A stretch of 64,000 nt of DNA from Squalus acanthias (Eukaryota), in NCBI GenBank assembly GCA_030390025.1, contig CM059431.1, positions 98,148,001-98,212,000 on the forward strand, read 5' to 3'. A program made the translations under genes and the position numbers. The stretch's first letter is position 1; each line of letters opens with the position of its first letter. Positions 27,570-64,000 of this stretch are shown here, in pieces. The notes beneath the pieces were generated by a model. It worked only from the letters and a program-made list of their open reading frames with translations. It ran no database searches and had not been told where the DNA came from.

Positions 27570-27694
27570 CACATGTTTTATTCTCTGGGAAATTTTCAGT
27601 GAATCAATTCGATGGTCCCTCCGATCACCGACTGGAGTCCAATGAGCTGACGCTTCAATTCCAGCTCAGTCCTGAACGAAATGCTTCACTAAAC
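27570..27694 (-). CDS. Exon with 5' UTR and start codon (coding part ATG TG, 27570-27574), in phase with exon 26376-26430
   Basis: Minus strand ttttattttctgacAG|GTTTAG...gaaTAAaacATGTG|GTAAGT; only ATG in the exon, A at -3, in-frame stop just upstream. Confidence 0.6.
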
Positions 27695-36800: not shown

Positions 36801-39800
36801 CCTGACACACTCAGAGTTACTGCCCCCGACACACTCAGAGTTACTGCCCCGACACACTCAATATTATTGCCCCTGACACACTCAATATTACTGCCCCTTA
36901 CACACTCAATATTACTGCCACTGACACACTCAGAGTTACTGCCCCTTACACACTCAGAGTTACTGCCCCTTACACACTCAGAGTTACTGCCCCTGACACA
37001 CTCAGAGTTACTGCCCCTTACACACTCAGAGTTACTGCCCCTTACACACTCAGAGTTACTGCCCCTGACACACTCAGAGTTACTGCTCCTTACACACTCA
37101 GAGTTACTGCCCCTGACACACTCAGAGTTACTGCCCCTTACACACTCAGAGTTACTGCCCCTTACACACTCAGAGTTACTGCCCCTGACACACTCAGAGT
37201 TACTGCTCCTTACACACTCAGAGTTACTACCCCTGACACACTCAGTGTTACTGCCCCTTTCACACTCAGAGTTACTGCTCCTTACACACTCAATATTACT
37301 GCCCCTTACACACTCAGAGTTACTGCCCCTTACACACTCTACATTACTGCCCCTGACACACTCAGAGTTACTGCCCCTTACACACTCAGAGTTACTGCCC
37401 TGACACACTCAGAGTTACTGCCCCTTACACACTCAGAGTTACTGCCACTGACACACTCAGAGTTACTGCCCCTTACACAGTCAGAGTTACTGCCCCTTAC
37501 ACACTCAGAGTTACTGCTCCTTACACACTCAGCGTCACTGCCCCTTACACACTCAATATTACTGCCCCTTACACACTCAGAGTTACTGCCCCTTACACAC
37601 TCAGAGTTACTGCCCCTTACACACTTAGAGTTACTGCCCCTTACACACTCAGAGTTACTGCCCCTGACACACTCAGAGATACTGCTCCTTACACACTCAG
37701 CATTCCTGCCCCTTACACACTCAATATTACTGCCCCTTACACACTCAGAGTTACTGCCCCTTACACACTTAGAGTTACTGCCCCAGACACACTCAGAGTT
37801 ACTGCCCCTTACACACTCAGAGTTACTGCCCCTTACACACTTAGAGTTACTGCCCCTTACACACTCAGAGTTACTGCCCCTGACACACTCAGAGTTACTG
37901 CTCCTGACACGCTCAGAGTTACTGCCCCGACACACTCAGAGTTACTGCCCCTTACACACTCAGAGTTACTGCCCCTGACACACTCAGAGTTACTGCTCCT
38001 GACACGCTCAGAGTTACTGCCCCTGACACACTCAGAGTTACTGCTCCTGACACGCTCAGAGTTACTGCCCCTTTCACACTCAGAGTTACTGCTCCTTACA
38101 CACTCAGAGTTACTGCCCCTTACACACTCAATTTTATTGCCCCTTACACACTCAGAGTTACTGCCCCTGACACACTCAGAGTTACTGCCCCTGACACACT
38201 CAGAGTTACTGCCCCTTACACACTCAATATCATTGCCCCTTACACACTCAGAGTTACTGCCCCTTACACAATTAGAGTTACTGCCCCTTACACACTCAGA
38301 GTTACTGCCCCTGCCACACTCAGAGTTACTGCCCCTTACACACTCAGAGTTACTGCCCTGACACACTCAGAGTTACTGCCCCTTACACACTCAGAGTTAC
38401 TGCCCCTTACACACTCAGAGTTACTGCCCCTTACACACTCAGAGTTGCTGCCCCTTACACACTCAGAGTTACTGCCCCTGACACACTCAGAGTTACTGCC
38501 CCTTACACACTCAGTGTTACTGCCCCTTTACACACTCAATATTATTGCCCCTGACACACTCAATATTACTGCCCCTTACACACTCAATATTACTGCCACT
38601 GACACACTCAGAGTTACTGCCCCTTACACACTCAGAGTTACTGCCCCTTACACACTTAGAGTTACTGCCCCTTACACACTCAGAGTTACTACCCTGACAC
38701 ACTCAGAGTTACTGCTCCTGACACGCTCAGAGTTACCGCCCCTTACACACTCAGAGTTACTGCCCCTGACACACTCAGAGTTACTGCCCCTTTCACACTC
38801 AAGAGTTACTGCTCCTTATACACTCAGAGTTACTGCCCCTTACACACTCAATTTTATTGCCCCTTACACACTCAGAGTTACTGCTCCTGACACACTCAGA
38901 GTTACTGCCCCTTTCACACTCAGAGTTACTGCTCCTTACACACTCAGAGTTACTGCCCCTTACACACTCAATTTTATTGCCCCTGACACACGCAGAGTTA
39001 CTGCCCCTGACACACTCAGAGTAACTGCCCCTTACAAACTCAATATTACTGCCCCTGACACACTCAGAGTAACTGCCCCTTACAAACTCAATATTACTGC
39101 CCCTTACGCACTCAGAGTTACTGCCCCTGACACACTCAGAGTTACTGCCCCTTACACACTCAGAGTTACTGCCCCTTACACACTCAGAGTTACTGCCCCT
39201 GACACACTCAGAGTAACTGCCCCTTACAAACTCAATATTACTGCCCCTTACACACTCAGAGTTACTGCCCCTGGCACACTCAGAGTTACTGCCCCTTACA
39301 CACTCAGAGTTACTGCCCCTTACACACTCAGAGTTACTGCCCTGACACACTCAGAGTTACTGCCCCTGACACACTCTGAGTTAATGCCCCTTACACACTC
39401 AGAGTTACTGCCCTGACACACTCAGAGTTACTGCCCCTGACACACTCTGAGTTAATGCCCCTGACACAATCAGAGTTACTGCCCCTGACACACTCAGAGT
39501 TACTGCCCCCGACACACTCAGAGTTACTGCCCCGACACACTCAATATTATTGCCCCTGACACACTCAATATTACTGCCCCTTACACACTCAATATTACTG
39601 CCACTGACACACTCAGAGTTACTGCCCCTTACACACTCAGAGTTACTGCCCCTTACACACTCAGAGTTACTGCCCCTGACACACTCAGAGTTACTGCCCC
39701 TTACACACTCAGAGTTACTGCCCCTTACACACTCAGAGTTACTGCCCCTGACACACTCAGAGTTACTGCTCCTTACACACTCAGAGTTACTGCCCCTGAC

Positions 39801-41520
39801 ACACTCAGAGTTACTGCCCCTTACACACTCAGAGTTACTGCCCCTTACACACTCAGAGTTACTGCCCCTGACACACTCAGAGTTACTGCTCCTTACACAC
39901 TCAGAGTTACTACCCCTGACACACTCAGTGTTACTGCCCCTTTCACACTCAGAGTTACTGCTCCTTACACACTCAATATTACTGCCCCTTACACACTCAG
40001 AGTTACTGCCCCTTACACACTCTACATTACTGCCCCTGACACACTCAGAGTTACTGCCCCTTACACACTCAGAGTTACTGCCCTGACACACTCAGAGTTA
40101 CTGCCCCTTACACACTCAGAGTTACTGCCACTGACACACTCAGAGTTACTGCCCCTTACACACTCAGAGTTACTGCCCCTTACACACTCAGAGTTACTGC
40201 TCCTTACACACTCAGCGTTACTGCCCCTTACACACTCAATATTACTGCCCCTTACACACTCAGAGTTACTGCCCCTTACACACTCAGAGTTACTGCCCCT
40301 TACACACTTAGAGTTACTGCCCCTTACACACTCAGAGTTACTGCCCCTGACACACTCAGAGTTACTGCTCCTTACACACTCAGCATTCCTGCCCCTTACA
40401 CACTCAATATTACTGCCCCTTACACACTCAGAGTTACTGCCCCTTACACACTTAGAGTTACTGCCCCGGACACACTCAGAGTTACTGCCCCTTACACACT
40501 CAGAGTTACTGCCCCTTACACACTTAGAGTTACTGCCCCTTACACACTCAGAGTTACTGCCCCTGACACACTCAGAGTTACTGCTCCTGACACGCTCAGA
40601 GTTACTGCCCCAACACACTCAGAGTTACTGCCCCTTACACACTCAGAGTTACTGCCCCTGACACACTCAGAGTTACTGCTCCTGACACGCTCAGAGTTAC
40701 TGCCCCTGACACACTCAGAGTTACTGCTCCTGACACGCTCAGAGTTACTGCCCCTTTCACACTCAGAGTTACTGCTCCTTACACACTCAGAGTTACTGCC
40801 CCTTACACACTCAATTTTATTGCCCCTTACACACTCAGAGTTACTGCCCCTGACACACTCAGAGTTACTACCCCTGACACACGCAGAGTTACTGGCCCTG
40901 ACACACTCAGAGTTACTGCCCCTTACACACTCAGAGTTACTGCCCCTGACACACTCAGAGTAACTGCCCCTTACACACTCAATATTACTGCCCCTTACAC
41001 ACTCAGAGTTACTGCCCCTGACACACTCAGAGTTACTGCCCCTTACACACTCAGAGTTACTGCCCCTGACACACTCAGAGTAACTGCCCCTTACACACTC
41101 AATATTACTGCCCCTTACACACTCAGAGTTACTGCCCCTTACGCACTCAGAGTTACTGCCCCTGACACACTCAGAGTAACTGCCCCTTACACACTCAATA
41201 TTACTGCCCCTTACACACTCTCGGTATTACTGCCCCTTACGCACTCAGAGTTACTGCCCCTGACACACTCAGAGTTACTGCCCCGACACACTCAGAGTTA
41301 CTGCCCCTTACACACTCAGAGTTACTGCCCCTGACACACTCAGAGTTACTGCCCCGACACACTCAGAGTTACTGCCCCGACACACTCAGAGTTACTGCCC
41401 CTTACACACTCAGAGTTACTGCCCCTGACACACTCAGAGTTACTGCCCCTGACACACTCAGAGTTACTGCCCCGACACACTCAGAGTTACTGCCCCTGAC
41501 ACACTCAGAGTTACTGCTCT
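27900..41520 (+). repeat. 24-bp satellite array, about 13.6 kb (roughly 565 units), with higher-order repeats
   Basis: Unit ttactgcccct(t/g)acacactcagag; identical ORF-track entries recur at offsets of 1223, 2179, 2683 and 3547 bp. Confidence 0.98.
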
Positions 41521-42033: not shown

Positions 42034-43128
42034 ATGGGAATCATGGGGAAAACTCTCCACTGGCTGGAGTCACACCTAGCACAGAGGAAGATGGTTGTGG
42101 TTGTTGGAGGTCAATCATCTCAGCCCCAGGACATCGCTGCAGGAGTTCCTCAAGGCAGTGTCCGAGGCCCAACCATCTTCAGCTGCTTCATCAATGACCT
42201 TCCCTCCATCATAAGATCAGAAATGGGGATGTTTGCTGATGATTGCACAGTGTTCAGTTCTATTCGCAACTCCTCAGATAACGAAGCAGTCCATGCCCGA
42301 ATGTAACAAGATCTGGACAACATTCAGAGTTGGGCTGATAAATGGCAAATGATATTCACGCCACACAGGTGCCAGGCAATGTTTATCTTCAACAAGCGAG
42401 AGTCTAACCACCTCCCCTTGACATTCAACGGCATTACCATCACCGAATCCCCCACCATCAACATCCTGGGATTAACCATTGCCCAGAACTGGACCAGCCA
42501 CATAAATACAGTGGCTACAAGAGCAGGCCAGAGGCTGGGTATTCTGTGGCGAGTGTCTCACCTCCTGACTCCCCAAAGCCTTCCACCATCTACAAGGCAC
42601 AAGTCAGGAGTGTGATGGAATACTCTCCACTTGCCTGGATGAGTGCAGCTCCAACAACACTCAAGAAGCTCGACACCATCCAGGACAAAGCAGCCCGCTT
42701 GATTGGCACCCCATCCACCACCTTAAACATTCACTCCCTCCACCACCGGCATACCGTGGCTGCAGTGTGTACCATCCACAAGATGCACTGCAGCAACTCG
42801 CCAAGGCTTCTTCGGCAGCACCTCCCGAACCCGCGACCTCTACCACCTAGAAGGACAAGGGTAGTAGGTGCATGGGAACACCACCACCTCCAAGTTCCCC
42901 TCCAAGTCACACACCATCCTGACTTGGAAATATATCACCGTTCCTTCATCGTCGCTGGGTCAAAATCCTGGAACTCCCTCCCTAACAGCACTGTGGGAGT
43001 ACCTTCACCACACGGACTGCAGCGGTTCAAGAAGGCGGCTCACCACCACCTTCTCGAGGGGCAACTAGGGATGGCAATAAATGCTGGCCTTGCCAGCGAT
43101 GCCCACATCCCATAAACAAATTTAAAAA
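42034..43128 (+). mobile_element. CR1-group LINE (distinct family), 3' part of RT
   Basis: GVPQGSVRGPTIFSCFINDL, MFADD, YKAQVRSVMEY, WNSLP; 3' end aataaatgctggccttgccagcgatgcccacatccc plus A-rich tail. Confidence 0.9.
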
Positions 43129-44269: not shown

Positions 44270-44935
44270 GCCACATAGCTCATGAGGGAGGCCATTCAGC
44301 CCATCTTAATTTATCTACCCGAATGACCCTACCGCTCCCCAGTGTAGTGTCTCGGTTTTTAAATAATCCCCGGGTTTCTGCCTCCACCTCTCCCCGCAGG
44401 AGTCCGATCCATGTGCTGGTCACTCTTTGTATGAAGAAGAATTTCCTGATGCAAGTTCTAACTTTGCTTATTACTCATTGGAACCTGTGTCCCTTCATCC
44501 TCTGCTCACAGTTTAGTTTGGAGGGTCGTTCTGCATTTACATTATCTACTCCGCTCACTGTCCTCTACGTTTCCAGAAGTTCTCAGTCACCCACCTCTCA
44601 AGGCTGAAATTCCCAAGGCCATGAATTTCCTGGGAGCTGCTCCATCGCCGGAAGTGCAGAGCAAATCCCAGTTACATACATGAACGAGCAGCTCCCACGA
44701 AATTCCCGGTCTTAGACTCTCCAGTCTTAGTTAGGAATTTAGTCCTCTGAAACTGGGATCGGCCCTGTGGCTCTTCTCTGCACTGCCTCCAACACTTGAA
44801 TGCCTCCCTTGTGTCTGAGTGAGCAGAGCTGGACACAGTGCTCAAGGTGGAATCTGACCCGAGCCCTGTACAGTTTGATCATGGCTTTCTCTGACTTCTA
44901 TTCTACTCTTTTGATTATCTAGTTCAGAATTCCCT
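44270..44935 (-). mobile_element. Old CR1 3' fragment containing a small MITE
   Basis: ggccattcagccc tail; ctggacacagtgctcaaggtgg (HLEHCVQ on the minus strand). Confidence 0.65.
44617..44711. mobile_element. About 95-bp MITE with ~26-bp imperfect terminal inverted repeats
   Basis: ggccatgaatttcctgggagctgctc versus gagcagctcccacgaaattcccggtc. Confidence 0.6.
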
Positions 44936-44939
44936 CTCA

Positions 44940-46305
44940 GCCCACTGACTCACACAGCTACCTGGACTACACTTCCTCCCACCCCGCTTCCTGGAAGGAC
45001 TCTATTCCATTCTTCCAGTTTCTCCGTCTCGGTCGCATCTGTTCTGACGATGCCACCTTCCATGCCAGTGCTTCCAACATGTCTTCCTTTTTCCTCAACC
45101 GAGGATTCCCCTCCACCGTGGTTGACACGGCCCTCGACTGTGTCTGTTCCATTTCCCGCACTTCCGCTCTCAACCCTTCCCCTCCCTCCCGGAACCACGA
45201 TAGAGTTCTCCTTGTCCTCACCTTTCACCCCACCAGCCTCCACATTCAACGGATCATCCTCCGCCATTTCCGCCACATCCAACGTGATCCCACCACCAAA
45301 CACATCTTCCCCTCACCTCCCCTTTCAGCATTCCGAAGGGACTGCTCCCTCCGCGACACCCTGGTCCACTCCTCAATCACCCCCAACACCCCTTCCCCTT
45401 CGCCCGGCACCTTCCTGTGCAAGCGCAGGAGATGCAACACATGCCCTTATACCTCCCCCCTTCCCACTGTCCAGGGCCCCAAACACCCTTTCCAGATGAA
45501 ACAGCGATTTACTTGTACTTCTTGCAATTTAGTATACTGTATTCGCTGCTCACGATGCGGTCTCCTCTACATTGGGGAGACCAAACTTAGATTGGGTGAC
45601 CGCTTTGCGGAACACCTCCGTTCAGTCCGTAAGCGTGACCCCGAGCTTCCGGTCGCCTGTCACTTTAATTCTCCGCTCCATTCCCACTCAGACCTCACCT
45701 GTCCTCGGCCTCTTGCATTGTTCCAATGAAGCTCAACGTAAGCTCGAGGAACAGCACCTCATCTTTCGATTAGGCACTTTACAGCCTTCCGGACTCAATA
45801 TCGAGTTCAACAATTTCAGATCATAGCCTCTGCCCCTATTTTTTCACGTAGCAGCTGTTGATGATTCTGCCATTCCCATTTACACCTCCTCTAGACCCAT
45901 CTTTTCATAGAATCATAGAAAGTTACAGCACAGGAGGAGGCCATTCGGCCCATCTTGTCCGTACCGGCCGACAAAGAGCGATCCACCCTAATCCCAATTT
46001 CCAGCGCTTGGTCCGCAGCCTTTTGTTTCTTAACTTGTCCCATTACCATCTCCTTTTGCCTCGCACCATCATCCCTTTTGTCATTTAATCTCTCCTGCCT
46101 TCCACCCTATCACAGACCTTCCCTTTTGTTCTTTCCTCCCCTCCCACCTTTCCCTGCCCCTACACTTGCTTAAAACCTGTGACATCTCTAAGTTTTTCCA
46201 GTTCTGACGAAAGGTCATTGACCTGAAACGTTAACTCTGTTTCTCTCTCCACAGATGCTGCCTGACCTGCTGAGTATTTCCAGCATTTTCAGTTTTTATT
46301 TCAGC
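44940..46305 (+). mobile_element. Penelope-like element (same family as 7590-8891), frameshifted, with a minus-strand CR1 tail at about 45906-46020
   Basis: Closely similar to the first copy; GIY-YIG motif LVYCIRC..LYIGETK. Confidence 0.92.
46200..46236 (+). ncRNA. Minimal hammerhead ribozyme (Penelope-associated)
   Basis: AGTT-CTGACGA-A-AGGTC(ATT)GACCT-GAAA-CG-TT-AACT. Confidence 0.8.
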
Positions 46306-47711: not shown

Positions 47712-50060
47712 CGTCTCAGCCCTGGCTCAGTGGGCAGCTCTCTCACCTGCGAGTCTAGAAGATCATGGGTTCAAGTCCCCATTCCAGAGACTTGAGCACA
47801 AAAATCTAGGCTGACACTCCCAGTGCAGTACTGAGGGAGCGCTGCACTGTCGGAGGGGCAGTCCTGAGGGAGCGCCGCACTGTCGGAGGGGCAGTACTGA
47901 GGGAGCGCTGCACTGTCGGAGGGGCAGTACTGAGGGAGCGCCGCACTGTCGGAGGGGCAGTACTGAGGGAGCGCCGCACTGTCAGAGGGGCAGTACTGAG
48001 GGAGCTCCGCACTGTCGGAGGGGCAGTACTGAGGGAGTGCTGCAATGTCGGAGGGTCAGTACTGAGGGAGCGCCACACTGTCGGAGGGGCAGTACTGAGG
48101 GAGCACCGCGCACTGTCGGAGGGCCAGAACCGAGAGAGCGCTGCACTGTCGGAGGGGCAGTACTGAGGGAGCGCTGCACTGTCGGAGGGGCGGTACTGAG
48201 GGAGCGCTGCACTGTCGGAGGGGCAGTACTGAGGGAGCGCTGCACTGTCGGAGGGGCAGTACTGAGGGAGCACCGCACTGTCGGAGGGGCAGTACTGAGG
48301 GAGCACTGCACTGTCAGAGGGGCAGTACTGAGGGAGTGCTGCACTGTCAGAGGGGCGGTACTGAGGGAGCACTGCACTGTCGGAGGGGCAGTACTGAGCG
48401 AGCGCTGCACTGTCGGAGGGGCAGTACTGAGGGAGCACCGCACTGTCGGAGGGGCGGTACTGAGGGAGCGCTGCACTGTCGGAGGGGCAGTACTGAGGGA
48501 GCGCTGCAGTCGGAGGGGCGATACTGAGGGAGCGCCGCACTGTCGGGAGGGACAGTACTGAGGGAGCACCACGCACTGTTGGAGGGCCAGAACTGAGGGT
48601 GTGCTGCACTGTCGGAGGGGCAGTACTGAGGGAGCGCCACACTGTCGGAGGGGCAGTACTGAGGGAGCGCTGCACTGTCGGAGGGGCGGTACTGAGGGAG
48701 CGCTGCACTGTCGGAGGGGCAGTACTGAGGGAGCGCTGCACTGTCGGAGGGGCAGTACTGAGGGAGCACCGCACTGTCGGAGGGGCAGTACTGAGGGAGC
48801 ACTGCACTGTCAGAGGGGCAGTACTGAGGGAGTGCTGCACTGTCAGAGGGGCGGTACTGAGGGAGCACTGCACTGTCGGAGGGGCAGTACTGAGCGAGCG
48901 CTGCACTGTCGGAGGGGCAGTACTGAGGGAGCACCGCACTGTCGGAGGGGCGGTACTGAGGGAGCGCTGCACTGTCGGAGGGGCAGTACTGAGGGAGCGC
49001 TGCAGTCGGAGGGGCGATACTGAGGGAGCGCCGCACTGTCGGGAGGGACAGTACTGAGGGAGCACCACGCACTGTTGGAGGGCCAGAACTGAGGGTGTGC
49101 TGCACTGTCGGAGGGGCAGTACTGAGGGAGCGCCACACTGTCGGAGGGGCAGTACTGAGGGAGCGCTGCACTGTCGGAGGGGCAGTACTGAGGGAGTGCT
49201 GCACTGTCGGAGGGGCAGTTACTGAGGGAGAGCTGCACTGTCGGAGGGGCAGTACTGAGGGAGTGCTGCATTGTCGGAGGGGCAGTACTGAGGGAGTGCT
49301 GCACTGTCAGAGGGGCAGTACTGAGGGAGCACCGCACTGTCGGAGGGGCAGTACTGAGGGAGCGCCGCACTGTCGGAGGGGTAGTACTGAGAGAGCGCCG
49401 CACTGTTGGAGGGGCAGTACAGAGGGAGCGCTGCACTGTCGGAGGTGCAGTACTGAGGGAGCGCTGCACTGTCGGAGGGGCAGTACTGAGGGAGCGCCGC
49501 ACTGTCGGAGGGGTAGTACTGAGAGAGCGCCGCACTGTTGGAGGGGCAGTACAGAGGGAGCGCTGCACTGTCGGAGGTGCAGTACTGAGGGAGCGCTGCA
49601 CTGTCGGAGGGGCAGTACTGAGGGAGCGCTGCACTGTCGGAGGTGTAGTCCTGAGGGAGTGCTGCACTGTTGGAGGGGCAGTACTGGGGGAGTGCCGCAC
49701 TGTCAGAGGGGCAGTACTGAGGGAGCGCCGCACTGTCGGAGGGACAGTACTGAGGGAGTGCTGCACTGTCGGAGGTGCCGTCTTTCAGATGAGATGTTAA
49801 GCCGAGGCCCCGTCTGCCCTCTCAAGTGGATGTAAAAGATCCCACGGCCACTATGCAAAGACGAGCAGGGGAGTTCTCCCCGGTGTCCTGGCCAATATTT
49901 ATCCCTCAACCAACATCACCAAAAACAATTAACGTGCTTGTTTATTCATTTGTTGTTTATGGGAGCTTGCTGTGCACAAATTGGCTGCCATGTGTCCTAC
50001 AAAACATCAGTGACTACACTTCCAAAGTACTTTGTTGGTTGTGAAGTGCTCTAGGATGTG
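47712..50060 (+). mobile_element. Deu-domain SINE with about 59 internal 33-bp repeats
   Basis: Head ctggctcagtggg...ggttcaagtccc; array 47825-49775; core and tail follow. Confidence 0.9.
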
Positions 50061-51268: not shown

Positions 51269-53302
51269 TAGGTGGGCGGGGCTAGGCGTGAGCAGGTGCT
51301 GCTGGGTGCTTGATTACTGCAGGGAGTTGGAGTGAGTTTGTAAAAAGTTGGTGGTGGGTTTTTGGGGGATTTTTTTTCAGGTTTTAGTGCCTTTTTGGTC
51401 CTTAAACAGCAGCTGCTAAGGGGCCCGAAGTCCAGGCCCTTCAGAGGACAATGTTCTCAGGATGAATTTAATCAGGGGAGAAAATGTTGGGGGAAGGGAG
51501 AAAAAAAGGCCCAAAGATTTGGGCCAGGACCCCAGGAGGTTTGGAAAAGAAAACACGGTGGTGGTTCAGTGCGAGGATAAGGAGATACGAGCTTGGGATA
51601 TTATCCAGGCGGAACATGAGGACTGCAGCGATGGAAGCTGCTTTGCCTGCCGACCAAAGCCGAATGTTGGGTTCGAGGTGACGGTCAGTGGCTAAGAGGA
51701 GGTGGAAAGACTTTTACTGAGTTTGAAGGTTGGAGATAAGTTCTTGGAGATATCTCTGCTATATTCTGAAGAGGTGGTGGACTCATTCTTAAACCTGTCG
51801 GTTTATAGTGAGGACGATGTGCTAATAAAAAAGTTGGAGTGGTGGGACATTAAAATTTGCTCGGCAATAAAGAGGAGATACTATCCAGGAACACGGGTAG
51901 CAGATGGAACCCGTTATGTAAAGGTGCGGTTCCCAGAGGGGGTGAAGTCATTGCCGTATAGCATGAAATTCGAGACAATGGAAGGAGTGCAGTACTTCCG
52001 GGTACTGCATGATAACCAGGTGAAGGTTTGTTATTATTGTCTTGGACACAACCATCTTGTAAGAAACTGTCTGGACTTGTACTGTTATAATTGCGGCGAG
52101 TCTGGACACATCGCTCGGAGCTGCAAGGTGGAGAGCTGTGGGGTGTGTCACAAAGACCCCACCCGCTGTGAGTGTGAGGCAGAAGGAAGCCCTATGAGTG
52201 ACGAGGAGATGGGAGAAGGAGCAGGAGCAGGAGGTGTGAGTGGAGCGGCTGGAGGAGCGGAGCAGGCGGAGGACACAGCTGGTGAATGGAAGGAGAAAAG
52301 AGCGCAGGAAGAGGCAGAAAATTGCGGAGCAGAGAACAGGATGGAGATGGTGGAAAACACACCAAGTACGGTGGAAAAGGACAAAGACAGCAGAGGGCAG
52401 CACGGGTCGAGGGCAGAGTCGAGCTATAATACGGTTCAGCTCTCCCTAAAGAATCTGGTGTCCGCGGGGGGAGAGGAGGCGGGAGTGGGGTGCGGGGTAA
52501 GTGTAAGTACTCCAAAGAAAGATGGGGAGTCGGACATCTCAGGGAGCAGGAGGGGGCAAGACAAGGAGAGGGTGCAAGAGGCAGGAGCCTTAAAGGGGCA
52601 GCAGGACGGGAGAGGGGAGACAAAGACGCCAGAAAGAAGTAAGATAGGTGCGCCATTGTCCCAGAGAGAGAAGAAACAGGGAGCAAGGGTCAGCGGTGGA
52701 GATGAAGCCGAAGGGAGGTGCACTGTTGGAGAAACCGTGATAGCAGGAAGACTCTCTAAGGGAGATTATGTATCTGACGGGGAGCAGGGACGGGAGGTTA
52801 CAGAAGAGCTCGAGAGTGAGCAGGCAGAGGGGGACAGAGACATGGAAGTGGGGGGTGGGGTGGCATCGTGTGGAAAGGGAAAGGTTAGTGAGGGGCAGAA
52901 GGAGGGCGAATGGGCAGCTCCTCAGACCAAACCTAATGCAAGGAAGAGGCTGAAACTGCAGGGAAGGTTCAAACAGGAGGTGAAAAAGAGCTGGAGGCTG
53001 CAGGAGAAAGCAACAGCTGCCCGAAAAGTTGGGAAGGAGCATGAGAGGAGGGAAGGGCCGGAGATTAAATGATGGGGGATTATCAAGCACACTCCCCTTA
53101 TTCGGAGCCATGATTACTGATCAATTTTTAAAGTGCAATAGATTAGTATATGTTATGGGAGACAAATTAAACTTCAGGTTTTGATGTTAATATGTGGTGG
53201 AGGAATGGCTGTGCAGAGCGGCGGAATGGATTTGTATGATACAATGGAATGATCACAATGTAAATGTTTTTAATGTTCAATAAATAATATATTTTTTAAA
53301 AG
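51269..53302 (+). mobile_element. Tx1/L1-clade non-LTR element carrying ORF1 only (ORF2 deleted), 15-bp TSD
   Basis: TSD GTGGGTCGCAC(G/C)CTC at 51254-51268 and 53303-53317; AATAAA at 53279 followed by an A/T-rich tail. Confidence 0.82.
51462..53072 (+). pseudogene. Tx1-type ORF1 (gag-like, ZCCHC3-like, two CCHC knuckles) with one in-frame stop at 51693-51695
   Basis: ORFs 51462-51695 and 51702-53072 share a frame; YPGTRVADGTRYVKVRFP..SLPYS; CYYCLGHNHLVRNC and CYNCGESGHIARSC; acidic low-complexity C-terminus. Confidence 0.85.
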
Positions 53303-53435
53303 GTGGGTCGCACCCTCGCCTCTGAGTCAGAAGGTCGTGGGTTCAAGTCTCACTCCCAAGACTTGAGCACATAATCCAGGCTGACACTCCCAGTGCAGTG
53401 CTGAGGGGGTGCAGCATGGTCAGAGGTGCCGTCTT
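53303..53435 (+). mobile_element. Remainder of the SINE head split by the Tx1 element (first part at 51236-51268); single 33-bp unit
   Basis: cctctgagtcagaaggtcgtgggttcaagtc...ggtgccgtc. Confidence 0.85.
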
Positions 53436-53436
53436 C

Positions 53437-54246
53437 TCTCAAGTGTAGTCGCTGTTGTAATGTAGGAAACGTGTCAGCCAATTTGTGCACAGGAAGCTCC
53501 CACAAATGTGATAGTGATCAGAAAACCTGTTGTTAGTGATGTTGGTTGAGGGATAAATATTGACCAGGGCACGGGGGAGAACTCCCCTGTTCTTCTTCGA
53601 AACAGTGCCATGGGATCTTTTACATCCACCTGAGAGGGCAGACGGGGCCTCGGTTTAACATCTCATCCGAAAGACAGCACCTCCGACAGTGCAGCACACC
53701 CTCAGTAATGCCCCTCCGACAGTGCAGCGCTCCCTCAGTACTGCCCCTCCGACAGTGCAGCGCTCCCTCAGTACTGCCCCTCCAACAGTGCAGCACACCC
53801 TCAGTACTGCCCCTCCGACAGTGCAGCGCTCCCTCAGTACTGCCCCTCCGACAGTGCAACACTCCCTCAGCACTGCCCCTCCAACAGTGCAGCACTCCCT
53901 CAGTACTACCCCTCCGACAGTGCAGCACTCCCTCAGTACTGACCCTCCGACAGTGCGGCGCTCCCTCAGTACTGCCCCTCCGACAGTGCAGCGCTCCCTC
54001 AGTGCTGCCCCTCCGACAGTGCGGTGCTCCCTCAGTACTGCCCCTCCGACAGTGCGGCACTCCCTCAGTACTGCCCCTCCGACAGTGCAGCACTCCCTCA
54101 GTACTGCCCCTCCGACAGTGCAGCGCTCCCTCAGTACTACCCCTCCGACAGTGCGGCACTCCCTCAGTACTGCCCCTCCGACAGTGCAGCGCTCCCTCAG
54201 TACTGCCCCTCCGACAGTGCAGCACTCCCTCAGTACTGCACTGGTG
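53437..54246 (-). mobile_element. Deu-domain SINE body with about 17 internal 33-bp repeats
   Basis: Core 53440-53680; array 53680-54240. Confidence 0.88.
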
Positions 54247-54469
54247 TGTCAGCTACCAGCCGTGCCTATCGAAGGGATTGATACCATCATCCACCTTGCA
54301 GTCACCTTCATCGCCCATCTCTGAATCCCTTCCAGGCACTGACAATCAACAGCGATCTTACTACGACAGCACACAGAGATAAATTCGAAATCTGTCTGGG
54401 CCTTGACACCTGAATTAGGCGACACCTGTTTAGCGCTGGTGCGTTGCTGAAACAGCTTCTCACTGACAC

Positions 54470-55292
54470 TACACAGAATGGACGGCAAGAAACAGGCCAT
54501 TCGGCCCAACTGGTCCGTGCCGGTGTTTCTGCTCCACACGAGCCTCGTCCCACCCCTCTTCATCTCACCCTATCAGCATATCCTTCTATTCCTTTCTCCC
54601 TCATGTGTTTATCCAGCTTCCTCTAAAATGCCTCTCTGCTATTTTCCTCAACCACTCCCTGTGGCAGCGAGTTCCACATTCTCACCACTCTCTGGGTAAA
54701 GAAGTTTCTCCTGAATTCTCTATTAGATTTATTAGTGACTATCTTATATTTATGGCCCCTAGTTCTGGACTCCCCCACAAGTGGAAACATCTTCTCTACG
54801 TCTACCCTATCGAAACCTTTCATAATTTTGAAGACCTCTATTAGGCCAGCCTTCTCTTTTCAAGAGAAAAGAGCCCCAGCCTGTTGAGTCTTTCCTGATA
54901 GTTATAACCCTCAATTCTGGTATCATCCTTGTAAATCTTTTGTGCACTTTCTCCAGTGCCCCTGTATCCATTTTTAGAACATGGAAACCAGACCTGCGTA
55001 CAGTGCTCCAAGTGTGGCCTAACCAAGGGCCAGTATGAATTGACCAATACCTCCATGCTTTAGTATCCTATTCCTCTAGAAGTGAACTCCAGTTATTTGC
55101 TGGCACTCTTTATGTCCTTATCAAATTGTGTTGCTACTTTTAGTGATTTGTGGGGCATAGACGCATTTAAGGGGAAACTAGATAAGTACATGAGGGAGAA
55201 AAGAAGAGGTTATGATGATAGGGTGAGATGAAGAGGGGTGGGAGGAGGCTCGTGTGGAGCATAAACACCGGCACAGACCAGTTGGGCTGAAC
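54470..55292 (-). mobile_element. CR1 3' fragment (minus, to about 55150) abutting a plus-strand CR1 tail (55155-55292)
   Basis: LVRPHLEHCTQVW and FFTQRVVRMWNSLP on the minus strand. Confidence 0.85.
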
Positions 55293-55294
55293 GG

Positions 55295-55449
55295 TGATGG
55301 CACGTGGTCAGAATGTCACGTGATCAGGCATAGCGTGATCAGTCATCACGTGGTCAACAATCACATGATCAGATGTCATGTGGTCAGATGTCACGTGGCC
55401 AAAATATCACATGATCAGATGTCACATGGTCAGAACATCATGTGATCAA
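55295..55449. repeat. Degenerate 15-16 bp tandem repeat rich in E-boxes
   Basis: About 10 units of gtcac(g/a)tg(a/g)tcagat; four CACGTG plus several CACATG/CATGTG. Confidence 0.7.
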
Positions 55450-57477
55450 TTCTCCAGGCATGCCTCCAATCAGAGTTGGCCCCCCAATCATCGGGCCTGT
55501 GCCAGTCTGTATTAATGAATGGATTTGTACACAATATCATTGGTCAATTCAGGTAACGACATGCGCATCTCATTAAACTCCATAAAGTGACAACATTTCC
55601 ATCAACAAGGTTCGAATCACATCACAGTGTCTGCAGAAAGAGAAGGGCCGATTTTAACCCGGGCGGGAATCGGGGGTGCGGGGACTGTAACGTGGGGGTG
55701 GGGAGGGGGGAATCCGTTCTGACCCCCCCCGAGAGCGTGAGGCCCAGGAGATCTTAAATCCCCCCCGGACCCTGACACTGACTCCCGCTCGAAACCTGCA
55801 GGAATGACATCAGCGCGGCCGGCGGGCGAGAGAGGGAGGTTTGGGGGGGGGGGCAGGGGTCAGGGCACCGGTGGGGACCCACGGAAACGGATCCTGTCAA
55901 GGTCAATGAGGAAAGTGGGGAGGGGGAAATCAGCAAAGATCACAATCGGGAGGAGACCATGGTTGCTTTGTGGGACAGGAGGAGCAGGAGCGAGGTCGCC
56001 ATTTAAATTAGGCCCCGCCCCCGCACCGCTGGGTCAAGATCCTTCCCCTGCCTGGTTTCAGGTAAGTTAAGTTAGTGGGGAGGGGGAGGGGGGCTGGAAT
56101 GCTGCACAAACCCCTCCCTCACCATATTAACCCCCCCCACCCGCACCCCACCCGCCCCCCACCCAGACGGGGGCGGAGGGGCTAAACTCAGGGCTAGAGA
56201 AAGTCGACAATGTGCGAGAAAGTTCCTGCTCTCCAATTGTATCGTGTTCCTCCAGCGCAAAGCACCAACGCCGGGAATTCCCTTGTGATCGGCTGGCGTA
56301 ACATCGGCGCAAGATCGGCGGAAGCCTCGCTTACGTGTGTATCCAGGGTTGGCGTCGATCTTCCGCCAAAGTTACGCCGGCCAATTGGTCAGCAACCCCC
56401 TCCCCCGAGGAAATTCGGGGCGATAATCTGAATCGGGAGTTAGAGGGGTAACTTTACAACGCGTCGCTCCCGGGTGAGCGTCACTGGATGGGAGCATCGG
56501 TGTAGAGTTGGCCCTGTACAGTCACCGTCCTTTCACCGACCTGCGCGCCCATCCAGCACCGCTCCGGAATGGGAGCGGAGGCCTTTGGAACTGTCAGACG
56601 TTACACTGGTAAAAATAACACAGCATTAATGTGTCGGAAATTTAGCTGCCAAAGAACCAAATTAGCAAAGATGCAACTCTGAAAATAAACACGAGATTTA
56701 ATGCGAATGATTCGTCTTCACTTTTAATTATCATTGAAACAAAATGATAGTTACAGAGGACTCTCAAATACTCGAAGATATTTAGATACAGATTGCTGAT
56801 TCTACGTTAGTCCCCTCCCCCCGGGAGATCCCATTCCCACTTGGGATGGGTGTGATGGGAACGCACCATACAGTCACATGGTCCTCACTGTCGCTGCACC
56901 AGGGAGATATTGCCCATCCCAGGCAGGTAAATGTCCCACAATCAGACCCAGCACCTCACTGCCTGAAGGGAAAGGGTCTGGGGAAATGCTCACATCCCAG
57001 GGCAGTGCCCACCATTCAATGCCCAACTCCTCCACTCCCCACACACACCCTCCATATCACGCACCCTGTGAGCTGACTGCCAGACACCTCACACAGCAAG
57101 TCCAACCTTCAGAGTCACATCAACTCAGTGAAGAACTGCTCGGAATATCTCCATCATTCAGCAGCTTGCTTTGGGACTTCCAGCAGTGTAACTGGGCTGT
57201 TTTACTGCTTGTCCTGGGATTGGTGAACTCCTCACCAGGAACATCACTGCCCTGAAGAGTGAGCTGGTGTGTGTGTGTTCTGTTCCAGACGGGTGGTCAG
57301 GGATCACAGCACAGTGATCATCTTTACTCAATGACTGCCGGTATGGAGTTACCTAAAGTCACTCCACCACCTAGAGAGTCAGTCTCAGCACCTGGCCCCG
57401 ACCCCTGGCAGCACCTCGCACTAACACACCGATCAACACTCGCACCCCCCAGTATAACTTCACTCAGCGTTACTCAC

Positions 57478-57552
57478 CGCTGCCTCCAAACTCCGAGTCT
57501 GGGCCAGGAGCAGGACGGCTGGGAGCAGCCAGGAGCACATCAAGTGAAACAT
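57478..57552 (-). CDS. Signal-peptide first coding exon, left-arm copy: MFHLMCSWLLPAVLLLAQTRSLEAA
   Basis: gccgATG...GAGGCAGCG|GTGAGT on the minus strand; phase 0 donor. Confidence 0.5.
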
Positions 57553-58651
57553 CGGCTAGACTCTTCCAGTGTCTGGACTTTACATTTGAAGCACTGATCC
57601 CAGCACGGAGACGGAGGAGATAGCTGGAGCCTCCCGCCTCTTCTGAGTCTTGCAACGGCTTTGCTGAAGTAAAGTTACAGAGTGGAGGCGTTCCTCAGTG
57701 TGTCGGAGCAGAAATTGCCAGTGCCTGGGAATCTGCTCTCTGTTCCCAGTTTACACGCTCCTCCCACCTCTCACTCCATCCAACAGGTCCCAGCCCTATT
57801 GCAGAGAGAGGACTCTAGCCTTAACCCTTTGGGGACTGGCTGCATTTTTAAACACTCACTTTAGACATTAGTCCACCCGGAAAATAACTGACTAGATTCT
57901 TTACTGTACTTTGGGAACCCTGAGCCTCATAAAGGATTAAAAAGACTGCACAAAAATGTCGAATATTTTAAGTCACATCATTGTAGATGGCAATCTCCTC
58001 ATGTTTGTAAATGTTTCTGTGTTGGAAGCGTTGGTGATTGACAATTGTACAAACTCTCTCGGTGACAAAGCGCTGATTCCTCAATCTGTAGAAATGTGCT
58101 TTCCCAATCCGTTCCGGAAAAGCTCTGGCCACTGGTTCAGTGCTTCCAGCCTATATATATATCGAGGAACTGGGCATCAGGAGCACAATATCAGACGAGG
58201 CAAATGTATATCTGTAACAAAATCAGTGGTGTAACATTTTCACCAGTGAGGACTTCTCGAAAAACCTGTGAAACGAGTGTTGAAAATTCCCAAAGTACAG
58301 TAAAGAATCTAGTCAGTTATTTTCCGGGTGGACTAATGTCTAAAGTGAGTGTTTAAAAATGCAGCCAGTCCCCAAAGGGTTAAGGCTAGAGTCCTCTCTC
58401 TGCAATAGGGCTGGGACCTGTTGGATGGAGTGAGAGGTGGGAGGAGCGTGTAAACTGGGAACAGAGAGCAGATTCCCAGGCACTGGCAATTTCTGCTCCG
58501 ACACACTGAGGAACGCCTCCACTCTGTAACTTTACTTCAGCAAAGCCGTTGCAAGACTCAGAAGAGGCGGGAGGCTCCAGCTATCTCCTCCGTCTCCATG
58601 CTGGGATCAGTGCTTCAAATGTAAAGTCCAGACACTGGAAGAGTCTAGCCG

Positions 58652-58726
58652 ATGTTTCACTTGATGTGCTCCTGGCTGCTCCCAGCCGTCCTGCTCCTGG
58701 CCCAGACTTGGAGTTTGGAGGCAGCG
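58652..58726 (+). CDS. Signal-peptide first coding exon MFHLMCSWLLPAVLLLAQTWSLEAA; resembles odd-type collagen IV exon 1 (COL4A5/A1-like)
   Basis: 25 codons with a hydrophobic core, ending GAG GCA GCG|GTGAGT (consensus donor, phase 0). From recall, human COL4A5 exon 1 ends EAA in phase 0 and the COL4A1 leader contains WLLLLPAALLL. Confidence 0.62.
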
Positions 58727-59433
58727 GTGAGTAACGCTGAGTGAAGTTATACTGGGGGGTGCGAGTGTTGATCGGTGTGTTAGTGCGAGGTGCTGCCAGG
58801 GGTCGGGGCCAGGTGCTGAGACTGACTCTCTAGGTGGTGGAGTGACTTTAGGTAACTCCATACCGGCAGTCATTGAGTAAAGATGATCACTGTGCTGTGA
58901 TCCCTGACCACCCGTCTGGAACAGAACACACACACCAGCTCACTCTTCAGGGCAGTGATGTTCCTGGTGAGGAGTTCACCAATCCCAGGACAAGCAGTAA
59001 AACAGCCCAGTTACACTGCTGGAAGTCCCAAAGCAAGCTGCTGAATGATGGAGATATTCCGAGCAGTTCATCACTGAGTTGATGTGACTCTGAAGGTTGG
59101 ACTTGCTGTGTGAGGTGTCTGGCAGTCAGCTCACAGGGTGCGTGATATGGAGGGTGTGTGTGGGGAGTGGAGGAGTTGGGCATTGAATGGTGGGCACTGC
59201 CCTGGGATGTGAGCATTTCCCCAGACCCTTTCCCTTCAGGCAGTGAGGTGCTGGGTCTGATTGTGGGACATTTACCTGCCTGGGATGGGCAATATCTCCC
59301 TGGTGCAGCGACAGTGAGGACCATGTGACTGTAAGGTGCGTTCCCATCATGCCCATCCCAAGTGGGAATGGGATCTCCCGGGGGGAGGGGAATAACCCCA
59401 TGACTGGCCCGTGTGGCGAGTGTCGAGAGATGC

Positions 59434-59656
59434 ACCGGTTCCGGTCTGGATCGGTTCCGTGCTGGATCGGTTCCGGGCTGGAACGGTTCCGGGCTGGATC
59501 GGTTCCGTGCTGGATCGGTTCCGGGCTGGATCGGTTCCATGCTGGATCGGTTCCGGGCTGGATCGGTTCCGGGCTGGATCGGTTCCGGGCTGGATCGGTT
59601 CCGGGCTGGATTGGTTCCTGGCTGGATCGGTTCCGGGCTGGATCGGTTCTGGGCTG
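59434..59656 (+). repeat. 16-bp CpG-rich minisatellite, about 13 copies
   Basis: Unit ggatcggttccgggct. Confidence 0.95.
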
Positions 59657-60479
59657 GGTGTGTGGAATACCAGATAATACAAGGATGGTCAGATTTGACT
59701 CCTGGACTTGATTCCATCGCCTAAGGGGGACGGAATGGAATTTGTTCCCCTTATTGGTCGTGGGTTTTTATCTGGGTTTTTCCGCCTCTCCCAGTAGATC
59801 ACACGGCTGCTGGTTGGAGGGCGGGAGGTCTAATCACAATGCTTCAGGCACGTGTGGGGCAGGATTGATGGAGCAGCTGGAATTTTCCTGCCCGTTATGT
59901 TTGTCTGTTGCGATTTACGTGGAGTCAGGAATCTGTGATGAAGTTGTTTTGTGCTCCTGTCATTCTGTGTTAATGACAGGTAAATGGAGATGGATGGTAA
60001 GGAGATGTCCTTTGATGATGGTCTCTGGTTGGAGCCCTCTCAATGATTAGAGCTCAGCCTCTGCTCTACAGACTTCACTCGCGGTTATATACACCCCGTG
60101 CCTCTGATGTACCTCCAACACAGCCCCAAAGCAAGGTCCTCACGCCATTGGCCCTCTAAGATGGACTGGAGATCCAGAGGGGCGATACGAGAGGAGAGGG
60201 GGTGCCTGGGGGTTCACGGTGGGGTACGGGCGCCACTCCCCCGGGAAACCCCAACACCAGAGTAAAAGTGTGTCATTCTCCCCCAGCAGCCTGTGGGGAG
60301 GGTCTAACCTCTGCTCCACAGATCCTTGCATCGGGATGGTGGAGATCAGACACTCACCGTGCGAGGAAGCAAGTTGACACACTGACCCATTCTGTGCCTC
60401 CCTTGGGCTCACTTTTCTTTGTTGCTAAACTCACTCAGTCTATGATTCAAAAAAACAAACAATATTTGGCCTGTTATAA

Positions 60480-60672
60480 GCTTTGGAATTCCCCCCTAAT
60501 CCTCTCCTCCTCTCTACCACTCTCTCCTCCTTTAAGACGCTCTTTAACACCAGCCTCTTCACCTGTCCTAATATCTCTTTATGTGGCTCGGTGTTTGTTT
60601 GATAATCGCTCCTGTGAAGCATCATGGGACGTTTTACTATGTTAAAGGAGCGATAGAAATACAAGTTGTTAT
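60480..60672 (+). mobile_element. L2 LINE 3' tail
   Basis: tggaattcccccct..tcctttaagacgctc..aaaggagcgatagaaatacaagtt, similar to 13728-13925. Confidence 0.7.
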
Positions 60673-60715
60673 TTTGCCGCATTATCATCATAGGTGTGTT
60701 GGTGTTAACACCGGG

Positions 60716-62123
60716 AATGTGTCAGAGAGCGTGTGAGTGTGTAAGAGAGAGTGTGAGTGTGTGAGAGAGTGTGTGAGTGTGTAAGAGAGTGTGAGTGTGT
60801 AAGAGAGAGTGAGAGTGTGTAAGAGAGAGTGTGAGTTTGTAAGAGAGAGTGTGAGTGTGTGAGAGGGTGTGTGAGTGTGTAAGAGAGAGTGTGAGTGTGT
60901 AAGACAGTGTGTGAGTGTGTAAGAGAGAGTGTGAGTGTGTGAGGGCGTGTGAGTGTGTAAGAGAGAGTGTGAGTGTGTAAGAGAGTGTGTGAGTGTGTAA
61001 GAGAGCGTGTGAGTGTGTAAGAGGGCGTGTGAGTGTGTAAGAGAGCATGTGAGTGTGTAAGAGAGTTTGTGAGTGTGTCAGAGATTGTGTGAGTGTGTAC
61101 GAGGGAGTGTGAGTGTGTAAGAGAGTGTGAGTGTGTAAGAGTGTGTGAGTGTGTAAGAGAGTGTGAGTGTGTGAGAGAGCGTGTGAGTGTGTAAGAGAGA
61201 GTGTGAGTGTGTAAGAGAGTGTGTGAGTGTGTAAGAGATTGTGTGAGTGTGTGAGAGAGCGTGTGAGTGTGTAAGAGATTGTGTGAGTGTGTAAGAGAGC
61301 ATGTGAGTGTGTAAGAGAGAGTGAATGTGTAATAAATTGTGTGAGTGTGCAAGAGATTATGTGAGCATGTAAGAGAGCGTGTGAGTGTGTAAGGGAGAGT
61401 GAGTGTGTCAGAGATTGTGTGAGTGTGTAAGAGAGTGTGAGTGTGTAAGAACAAGTGAGTGTGTAAGAGAGAGTGAGTGTGTAAGCGCATGTGTGAGTGT
61501 GAGAGTGTGAGTGTGTAAGAGTGAGTGAGTGTGTAAGAAAGAGTGAGTGTGTAAGAGAGAGTGTGTTTGTGTAAGAAAGAGTGAGTGTGTAAGAGAGAGT
61601 GTGAGTGTGTAAGAGTGAGTGAGTGTGTAAGAAAGAGTGAGTGTGTAAGAGAGAGTGTGTTTGTGTAAGAAAGAGTGAGTGTGTAAGAGAGAGTGTGAGT
61701 GTGTAAGAGAGCGTGAGAGTGTGTAAGAGAGAGTGTGAGTGTGTAAGAAAGTGAGTGTGTAGGAGAGAGTGTGAGTGTGTGAGAGAGAGTGTGTAAAAGA
61801 GAGTGAGAGTGTGTAAGAGAGAGTGAGTGTGTAAGAGATTGTGTGAGTGTGTAAGAGAGAGAGAGTGTGTAAGAGAGTGTGTGAGTGTGTAAGAGGGAGA
61901 GAGTGTGTAAGAGAGAGTGAGTGTGTGTAAGAGAGAGTGAGTGTGTAAGAGAGTGCGTGAGTGTGTAAGAGAGAGTGAGTGTGTAAAAGAGAGTGAGAGT
62001 GTGTAAGAGAGAGTGAGTGTGTAAGAGAGTGTGTGAGTGTGTAAGAGAGAGTGAGTGTGTGTAAGAGAGAGTGAGTGTGTAAGAGAGTGCGTGAGTGTGT
62101 AAGAGAGAGTGAGTGTGTGAGAG
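60716..62123 (+). repeat. GT/GA compound minisatellite (gtgagtgtgtaagagaga-like, 18-22 bp)
   Basis: Direct inspection. Confidence 0.95.
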
Positions 62124-62552
62124 TTGTCTCACACACAGGGACAGATCACACTGCCGCAGAACAAGCAGCACACACTGCGATGTCATTGAAACCTTCCCCC
62201 TACAGATTGCAGTCAGTCTATAGTCTAAAATATCAGACTTTAAAATCTCTTATTTAGGCAGGAAAAATATCTGTTGCAATGTTTTTTGTTAAAGTGATTG
62301 TGTTTTTTTCCAAGTTGTGCAAGATGTGAAGGCTGAGTCTATCTTGGGGCTGGAATTTGTGTGTCCCAATAGCGTGGGATAGATAGACCTGTTGGGCCGA
62401 ATGGCCTGTTCCTGTGCTGTACAATTCTATGTAATTCTATCTGAGGGTTTGGGTGTTTGAGGTCTAATCTTTGGGATTGCCTCGATGGTCTGTAGAGCTT
62501 TCACTGCCCTTGTACTTTCCATTGTTCCCATAGAGAAATCGGGGGGGTGGGG

Positions 62553-62554
62553 CG

Positions 62555-62588
<34 letters not shown>

Positions 62589-62900
62589 GAGACACACACA
62601 CTCAGACAGAGATAGACAGAGAGAGACAGACAGAGATAGAGAGCGATAAAGACAGAGAGAGATAGTGAGAGAGAGAGAGTTGGAGAGTCAAAGATATAGA
62701 GACAGAAACAGACCAAGGGAGAGAGAGAGAGAGAGAGATACAGACAGATGAAAGACAGTCAAAGACAGATAGAGAAACAGACAAAAGGGAGAGAGAGAAT
62801 GTGAGAAACAGTCTGAGTGAGAGACAGTCAAGGAGAGAGAGATAGTGTGAGAGACAGAGAGTGAATGACAGACAAAGAGAGGGAGACACACGCACAGAGG
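62553..62900 (+). repeat. Degenerate (GA)n/(GACA)n microsatellite
   Basis: Direct inspection. Confidence 0.9.
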
Positions 62901-63404
62901 GAGTGTGCGAGTGCACAATGTTCAGTGAAGCATTGTGGAGTAAGGGGCAAAGACAAGCGATCCCCAGTAACAGGAGCAGTCACTGGGCTGGAGCGTTTGT
63001 TGTCAAAAAATCGCCGGCGCACTGCTGCAGAGAAAGGCTTCTTTTCCAGATTAGATGTGAGGGTAATATTACAAACTGGGACTGTAGGCCAGCAGGGAGA
63101 TAGGTGGGGGATCTGGACAGGCAGCTCAGTGAGGCTGGTAGGATTGTCCTGGAGGACCTCACTGAGTTACGGATTCCCATTCCTGATTTGGGCTCCGAGG
63201 GGCAAGGTTCTGTGCGGCAGCTTGACTCCGTCCCACCCACCAATCAGGTAGATTTTACATGTTGGCTGGTCCCGATGGAAATCCGTTGGAGGCCACACAT
63301 CGGATGCCAACACCTGTGCCCGATTTCCCAGTCCGAGAGCCTGTCGCACTGAGATCTAACGGGATCACCAGATCATGAAACGTACGCCTCAGTCTCTGCC
63401 CTGT

Positions 63405-63690
63405 AAGGGGACGGTGGCCTAATGGTTACGGTACTGATTGTGAGTTCAAATCCCACCGTGGCAACTGAATTCAATAAATCTTGGTCGTTTGTGGCTGGTC
63501 TCAGTAAAAGTGACCATGAAGCTGTCGGATTGTCGTAAAAACCCAACTGGTTCACTAATGTCCCTTAGGGAAGGAAACCTGCCGTCCTTACCTGGTCTGG
63601 GCCTATATGTGACTCCAGTCCCGCACCGAAGTGGTTGACCTCAGGGCAATAAGGGAAAGGCAATAAATGCGACTTTTGCAGTAGTTGCCC
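63405..63690 (+). mobile_element. tRNA-derived SINE (same family as 2770-3050)
   Basis: A box tggcctaatgg, B box gagttcaaatccc, body ctggttcactaatgtccc..cctggtctggg, tail ggcaataaatgc. Confidence 0.75.
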
Positions 63691-63805
63691 ACAGGCCAAG
63701 GTCAAATACAAAGAAGTGTTTGTTCCAATGCTGAGAGAGGTGAGCTGCCCAATTGAGGATGAGATCCAAGAGTCCTCGATGTACAGAAGCATGGCCAGAC
63801 AATAC

Positions 63806-64000
63806 GGAGAGCTCGCCCACACTACCACAGCCTGTGACCAGGCCCGGGGGATGGAGAGCTCGCCCACACTACCACAGCCTGTGACCAGGCCCGGGGGATG
63901 GAGAGCTCGCCCACACTACCACAGCCTGTGACCAGGCCCGGGGGATGGAGAGCTCGCCCACACTACCACAGCCTGTGACCAGGCCCGGGGGATGGAGAGC
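63806..64000 (+). repeat. 47-bp minisatellite, at least 4 identical copies (runs off window end)
   Basis: Unit gagagctcgcccacactaccacagcctgtgaccaggcccgggggatg at 63807, 63854, 63901, 63948. Confidence 0.95.

Follow-up and report, generated by a model that had tools for sequence, protein, structure and literature searches.

A small palindrome in Squalus acanthias with a leader-like, probably transcribed first exon in each arm

Introduction

Inverted duplications that carry genes or the beginnings of genes are described from several vertebrate systems. For the palindromes of primate and mouse sex chromosomes, PMC8327919 describes arm-to-arm exchange and inversion of the spacer by recombination between the arms, with spacer inversion presented as common in large primate palindromes. 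Other papers define this class as larger than about 8–10 kb; its palindromes carry whole genes. On a smaller scale, the human CCDC200 ‘Janus/sunaJ’ arrangement is described as a 4-kb inverted duplication containing a first coding exon and about 1 kb of adjacent intron, with an intervening sequence whose orientation is opposite to that in another species (10.1101/2025.11.08.687349). In the BRCA1/NBR1 region, the same source describes a partial duplication ending in early introns that left transcribed extra copies of promoters and first exons. Its products, BRCA1P1 and NBR2, are presented as orphan 5' ends, one being a non-coding RNA and one a pseudogene. More generally, partial and chimeric duplicates are described as holding part of a parent gene and possibly recruiting new downstream sequence, which is a route to new genes (PMC3449122). 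Here, a palindrome of about 2.6 kb was analysed in 64,000 nucleotides of Squalus acanthias DNA (assembly GCA_030390025.1, contig CM059431.1, positions 98,148,001 to 98,212,000 of the forward strand; hereafter the window, with coordinates counted from its first letter). On balance, the evidence slightly favoured an origin by inverted duplication of a transcribed promoter and first exon, with one true and one orphan copy, the duplication being fairly young or homogenised.

The locus resembles the large sex-chromosome palindromes (human Y P1–P8 and the X palindromes) in having inverted arms that are more than 99% alike, a unique spacer and gene content in the arms. Differences between its arms are concentrated towards the outer ends, and a flipped spacer is hinted at by a single contig. 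In contrast to that class, the arms are 1.1 kb long, about ten times shorter and below the size range, they hold the 5' end of a gene only, and gene conversion is indicated by hints. The closest analogues in content would be CCDC200 and BRCA1/NBR1. The CCDC200 copies, as described, lie far apart with much sequence between them, whereas the copies studied here flank a spacer of 369 bp and their parent gene was not found. In the BRCA1/NBR1 case, as presented, a promoter that was already bidirectional was duplicated in tandem, whereas here the inverted duplication itself would create the divergence. Unlike in chimeric gene duplicates, a chimeric transcript was not demonstrated. Literature searches with limited terms returned no specific report of such palindromes in sharks or of inverted partial duplications of signal-peptide exons.

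Results and Discussion

Palindrome architecture

Positions 56700–59500 were used as blastn query against the whole 64-kb window and a repeat search was also run. Both returned an inverted match of 56806–57917 to 59396–58287 with 99.19% identity over 1112 columns. Arms of about 1.1 kb with about 99% identity around a 369-bp spacer had been proposed in an initial annotation made from the letters alone, and blastn and global alignment bore this out. The limits given there, 56811–59391, correspond to the part of the palindrome inside the outermost mismatch. The near-identity of the inverted arms (99% or more) and the unique sequence between them make the structure a palindrome. Its parts were as follows.

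56806..57917, left arm, 1112 nt (repeat search, blastn, global alignment)
58287..59396, right arm, 1110 nt (repeat search, blastn, global alignment)
57918..58286, spacer, unique, 369 bp, AT-richer (GC 0.39–0.43), with a (TA)n run at 58152–58165
56810..56868 (mirror 59334–59392), outer-edge cluster with four of the seven arm substitutions (global alignment)

In the global alignment, the arms differed by seven substitutions (left-arm coordinates 56810, 56851, 56852, 56868, 57132, 57495 and 57606) and one indel, a 2-bp GT within a (GT)n run at 57267–57268. No third copy of arms or spacer was present within the 64 kb, the remaining blastn matches being confined to a 16-bp tandem array at 59436–59657. 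This array of 13.9 copies begins 40 bp outside the right arm and has no counterpart in the left flank. A wider, older palindrome was not found: blastn of the left flank (52000–56805) against the right flank (59397–64000) returned a single 48-nt repeat match.

Two copies per genome

Contigs of four coded public runs (X1, X5, X6 and X7) were mapped to 54300–58350, an interval that starts in the left flank, takes in the left arm and the spacer and ends 64 nt into the right arm. X1 was DNA of organism A, X5 another sample of organism A and X6 a run of very low depth from organism B. Runs of organisms C–I contained 10–17% of the sampled words.

In X1, the arm was assembled as a single 1105-nt contig that ended exactly at 56811 and 57917 and had a depth of 17.6. 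Single-copy neighbouring contigs had depths of 7.81, 9.24 and 9.6, the latter two being flank and spacer. A 429-nt contig (57888–58316) bridged the spacer and extended 30 nt into the arm on either side. An assembly graph of this form is expected where two inverted arms collapse onto each other and flank a single-copy centre. X5 showed the same tendency, with a depth of 39.6 for the arm-bearing contig and 17.3 for the left flank. In X6, the arm alone was assembled, in three contigs without a difference from the window over 921 nt. These contigs broke around the arm-difference sites 57132 and 57495 and ended at the arm boundary 57917, which fits organism B having two arms with the same differences.

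Assembly by folding back of a single real arm was therefore weighed against a genuine duplication. Palindromes are a recognised failure mode of long-read assemblers, and the X5 contigs were without a break at the arm ends. Against an artefact stand the X1 depth, doubled across the arm only, the X1 contig that spans the spacer into both arms, the eight places at which the arms differ, the defined spacer of 369 bp and the interruption of the X6 contigs at two arm-difference sites. An artefact is accordingly very unlikely, and the single-arm outcome that the initial annotation had named as fatal to its proposal was not seen in these contigs.

The long inverted arms, the short unique centre and the abundance of mobile-element remains in the region would also suit terminal inverted repeats of a foldback-type or other transposon. 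The arm had only about twice the depth of the single-copy flanks in X1, whereas a true interspersed repeat at 54436–55387 reached summed depths of 1e5–3e6 in X1 and X5; the arm is therefore two-copy DNA and not a high-copy element. Furthermore, the palindrome edges showed no direct repeat that would indicate a target-site duplication, and no transposase or other Pfam match was found in arms and spacer (0 of 26 open reading frames (ORFs) of at least 55 amino acids overlapping 56785–59720). Scans with Rfam at the gathering threshold and for tRNA genes returned no matches. A 151-amino-acid antisense ORF in the arm (56800–57252) shared words with 47 candidate proteins of 83–265 amino acids, none with E <= 0.001. 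A transposon origin is highly improbable. The palindrome structure and the presence of two arm copies per genome are shown by these data.

A putative leader-like exon at the same place in each arm

The scan for ORFs and splice donors identified one short frame in each arm. The features are listed with the upstream frame and the presumed untranslated part.

57478..57552, minus strand, left leader-like ORF of 25 codons with R at codon 20, ending in phase 0
58652..58726, plus strand, right leader-like ORF of 25 codons with W at codon 20
57472..57477, minus strand, left-copy GTGAGT donor, GCG directly followed by GTGAGTAA
58727..58732, plus strand, right-copy GTGAGT donor
58598..58624, plus strand, upstream ORF of 8 codons with its ATG at 58598, in the window in the right arm only
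57553..57735 (mirror 58469–58651), minus strand, presumed 5' untranslated part, bounded by the upstream limit of RNA-like cover

Both ORFs directly abut GTGAGT and face outward, with a distance of 1100 bp from ATG to ATG, as the initial annotation had described (25-codon leaders, ATGs 1.1 kb apart). The donor matches all six intron positions of the GTRAGT consensus. The sole substitution within the ORF is at codon 20, TGG (W) in the right and CGG (R) in the left copy, and it is non-synonymous. This difference had also been described correctly. The upstream ATG described as a second difference was present in the right arm of the window, and its letter was absent from the contigs covering the site in three runs (X1 record 7, X6 record 24 and X7 record 32); it may be private to the assembled haplotype.

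Signal peptides have a basic n-region, a hydrophobic h-region of 7–15 residues and small residues at positions -3 and -1 of the cleavage site. The h-region of the leader reached a maximum 11-residue Kyte-Doolittle mean of 2.2. The expectation by chance was estimated by counting, over both strands of the window (128 kb), the frames of 15 or more codons that begin at an ATG and stay open until they reach a GTRAGT. A hydrophobic core was defined as an 11-residue Kyte-Doolittle mean of at least 2.0. Nine such frames were found. The two hydrophobic ones were the palindrome copies, and none of the other seven was hydrophobic. The ORF may be translated as a signal peptide, and the donor may be used.

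No CpG island was present at the palindrome, and no core-promoter motifs were convincingly spaced from the 5' limit of RNA-like cover. On the plus strand, neither AATAAA nor ATTAAA occurred between 58727 and 61000; on the minus strand, ATTAAA occurred at 56728 and 56702.

Probable transcription of the exon region

None of the 23 listed sequencing runs was on record as RNA. Run X7 was read as RNA because it was small and its cover was very uneven. It comprised 129 million letters, far below what the assembly of two-copy DNA from a large genome requires. The depth of its contigs across the left half of the palindrome was as follows.

55524–56747, left flank, single-copy: 0
57020–57291: 0.26–0.75
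57292–57427, just downstream of the donor: 8.5
57428–57563, exon bin: 101.5, a sum over overlapping contig ends by which the exon edge is not placeable
Upstream of the exon bin to 57735 (record 32, one contig 57524–57735): 35.6
57918..58286, spacer: 0

No X7 cover was seen upstream past 57735. If X7 is RNA, the transcript would start close to 57735, with about 183 nt ahead of the ATG, and the steady-state level would drop more than 10-fold about the predicted donor. The peak on the exon and about 180 nt upstream of it, together with the drop in the intron, indicates that the unit is probably a transcribed first exon, perhaps active from both copies. The ORF, the donor and the exon-like depth fit a block of promoter, first exon and partial intron 1; a splice junction was not seen among the rows listed.

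Both arm letters were found in X7 at 57495, with a depth of 42.3 of 124.2 for the right-arm letter A. This fits activity of both copies if the two arms carry a fixed difference at 57495, as they do in the window and X6. A further X7 contig, with a depth of 5.13, had right-arm letters at 56851, 56852 and 56868 and extended 31 letters past the outer end of the arm. It fits primary transcripts of the right copy that continue into the right flank.

A start of two divergent genes at the palindrome had been proposed. The exon-like depth agrees with transcription of the exon region, and the presence of both the R and the W letter with activity of both copies; no splice junction from either donor was seen among the rows listed, and no downstream exon was found in the window. 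A hairpin RNA was considered and dismissed, as it requires read-through of both arms and the X7 cover was 0 on spacer and left flank, although a lack of contig cover proves nothing.

Search for a parent gene

A Pfam scan covered 262 of the 318 stop-to-stop ORFs of at least 55 amino acids outside the satellites; the 56 omitted ORFs lay at 7.4–18.9 kb, a part dense in long interspersed nuclear elements (LINEs). The 262 ORFs contained no cellular domain, only mobile-element domains and one weak low-complexity match. In the first set, four of 150 ORFs matched (RVT_1, GIY-YIG, zf-CCHC and a weak SPRR2 below the cut-off), and in the second set one of 112 (GIY-YIG, below the cut-off). The remaining exons that a partial duplication of a 5' end would leave downstream of one copy were not found in the window. 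The next exon may lie beyond the end of the window, which is 4.6 kb past the right arm.

Origin of the palindrome

The explanation given somewhat better than even chances is that the 5' end of a single transcription unit was duplicated in inverted orientation to give the palindrome. Read from the spacer towards its outer end, each 1.1-kb arm would contain about 180 bp of promoter-proximal DNA and about 183 nt of 5' untranslated sequence. These would be followed by a 75-nt signal-peptide-like first coding exon ending in phase 0, a strong GTGAGT donor and the first 0.67 kb of the intron. The two copies would fire outward from the common 369-bp centre. One of them, perhaps the right, would be the true start of the gene, with its next exon beyond what was recognisable, and the other would be an orphan promoter and first exon reading into foreign DNA. 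Exchange between the arms would have kept them alike. Transcription of the exon region was observed to the extent that X7 is RNA, and activity of both copies is suggested by the two letters at 57495.

Several points weigh against this explanation. The RNA label of X7 is a guess, and its reading as RNA here comes from the uneven cover. The sign that both copies are transcribed comes from one site, since contigs drop variants and cannot phase the arms. Among the rows listed for X7 and the other runs, no contig or joint used either donor. X1 possibly stems from the assembled sample itself, though several flank sites in its contigs carry other letters than the window. One X5 contig, record 16, conflicts with the arrangement in the window. 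No second exon or parent gene was found within the window. The leader was without a homologue in a phmmer search of the natural 30-codon ORF against 1.84 billion representative sequences. It has no K or R ahead of the hydrophobic core, and its start context is weak, with C at -3 and T at +4.

The lone phmmer match with E <= 0.001 was a repetitive 190-amino-acid protein, six stretches of which aligned to query residues 3–18, and it was judged spurious.

The main rival explanation accepts the same real palindrome as the duplicate of a non-coding unit, in which the 25-codon ORF would have arisen by chance within a transcript that is long non-coding or promoter-associated, and no signal peptide would be made. 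The missing homologue, the weak Kozak context, the lack of a basic n-region and of a downstream coding exon in the window, the absence of a CpG island and the non-synonymous W/R change as the lone substitution in the ORF all speak for it. Against it, a hydrophobic frame ending exactly at a strong donor was seen in none of the seven other candidate frames in 128 kb of both strands, and the RNA-like depth falls steeply near the donor. The non-coding unit is a possible but rather doubtful explanation; the artefact, the transposon and a leader for a gene 30 kb away, discussed below, are each unlikely.

If the duplication of a coding first exon is true, the locus would be a compact natural example of an inverted duplication by which a first exon and its promoter, formerly facing one way, become a divergent pair, with one copy freed to capture new exons. 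Arm-to-arm exchange would then act on arms as short as 1.1 kb, and the dynamics of palindromes and of partial duplicates could usefully be studied here in a vertebrate that evolves slowly. The general view is unchanged, since orphan first exons are familiar and so are inverted segmental duplications of small size; in this repeat-rich part of a vertebrate genome, the palindrome is a small partial gene duplication of an ordinary kind.

Possible arm exchange and spacer inversion

Within the 1112-nt arm, the outermost 63 nt held four of the seven substitutions (binomial P = 3e-4, or P = 3e-3 when 56851 and 56852 are treated as one event), while the innermost 311 nt of the arms showed no differences. 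This gradient hints at arm-to-arm exchange; a fuzzy duplication boundary would give the same. The X1 and X5 arm contigs departed from both window arms at 57870, 57871 and 57879, where the two arms of the window agree with each other and with organism B. The arms could co-vary within haplotypes, although contigs that collapse the arms cannot prove it.

Record 16 of X5 covered 58078 to 56806 in one piece, comprising the left part of the spacer and a whole arm. Its letters at the outer sites were those of the right arm, as was its 2-bp gap, and it ran on for 79 letters that did not fit the left flank. It represents either a flipped spacer in that individual or a chimeric walk through the collapsed arms. 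Of the arm-to-arm conversion and spacer inversion that had been proposed as possible, hints were obtained for both: the crowding of substitutions at the outer edge for the former, and this one contig for the latter. A version in which both copies are active around a shared bidirectional control region of 369 bp, with the arms exchanging and the centre flipping between individuals, is improbable. In that version, a single promoter and signal-peptide exon would be offered to two different downstream sequences, a live case of a duplicated secretion leader tried on new DNA and an early step toward a new secreted gene.

Proposed link to a minus-strand gene

The left copy had also been proposed as an alternative leader or upstream ORF for a gene on the minus strand (exons at 27.6 and 26.4 kb). 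The letters had been read correctly: the left copy ends in phase 0, as does the 55-bp exon, and splicing to the 27694 acceptor would yield GTT TAG. The exons are 30 kb away, beyond a 13.6-kb satellite, and a local alignment of the leader regions scored 17, a value reached by 124 of 300 shuffles. No transcript evidence for the minus-strand gene was seen. With no DNA similarity and nothing else linking the two places, the proposal is extremely unlikely.

The minus-strand candidate itself is a split leader (27569–27573 and 26376–26430, minus strand), in which ATGTG precedes GTAAGT and a 55-bp exon follows; it comprises 20 hydrophobic codons and ends in phase 0.

Surrounding repeats and mobile elements

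The satellite between the two places is a 24-bp array of 13.6 kb (27903–41517). Inside it, about 31.9–35.4 kb was letter-for-letter identical to a stretch 3547 bp further on, which points to a higher-order duplication of very recent date or to a repeat introduced by the assembly. A 33-bp satellite was present in six arrays, in both orientations, among mobile-element remains:

20707–20934, 33-bp satellite array
21335–22117, 33-bp satellite array
22417–22525, 33-bp satellite array
25270–26243, 33-bp satellite array
47825–49775, 33-bp satellite array
53680–54239, 33-bp satellite array

The interspersed repeat at 54436–55387 had a summed depth of 1e4–1e5 in the RNA-like run X7 and showed many inverted joints at 54.55–55.24 kb. 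An uninterrupted ORF of 458 amino acids (51696–53069, plus strand) contained a CCHC zinc knuckle (Pfam E = 1.4e-6) and probably encodes a gag or ORF1-like retroelement protein. Two related ORFs (7287–8483 and 44923–45726, both plus strand) gave weak GIY-YIG matches below the Pfam cut-off and are presumably remains of Penelope-type elements. An RVT_1 fragment was located at 42034–42303 on the plus strand.

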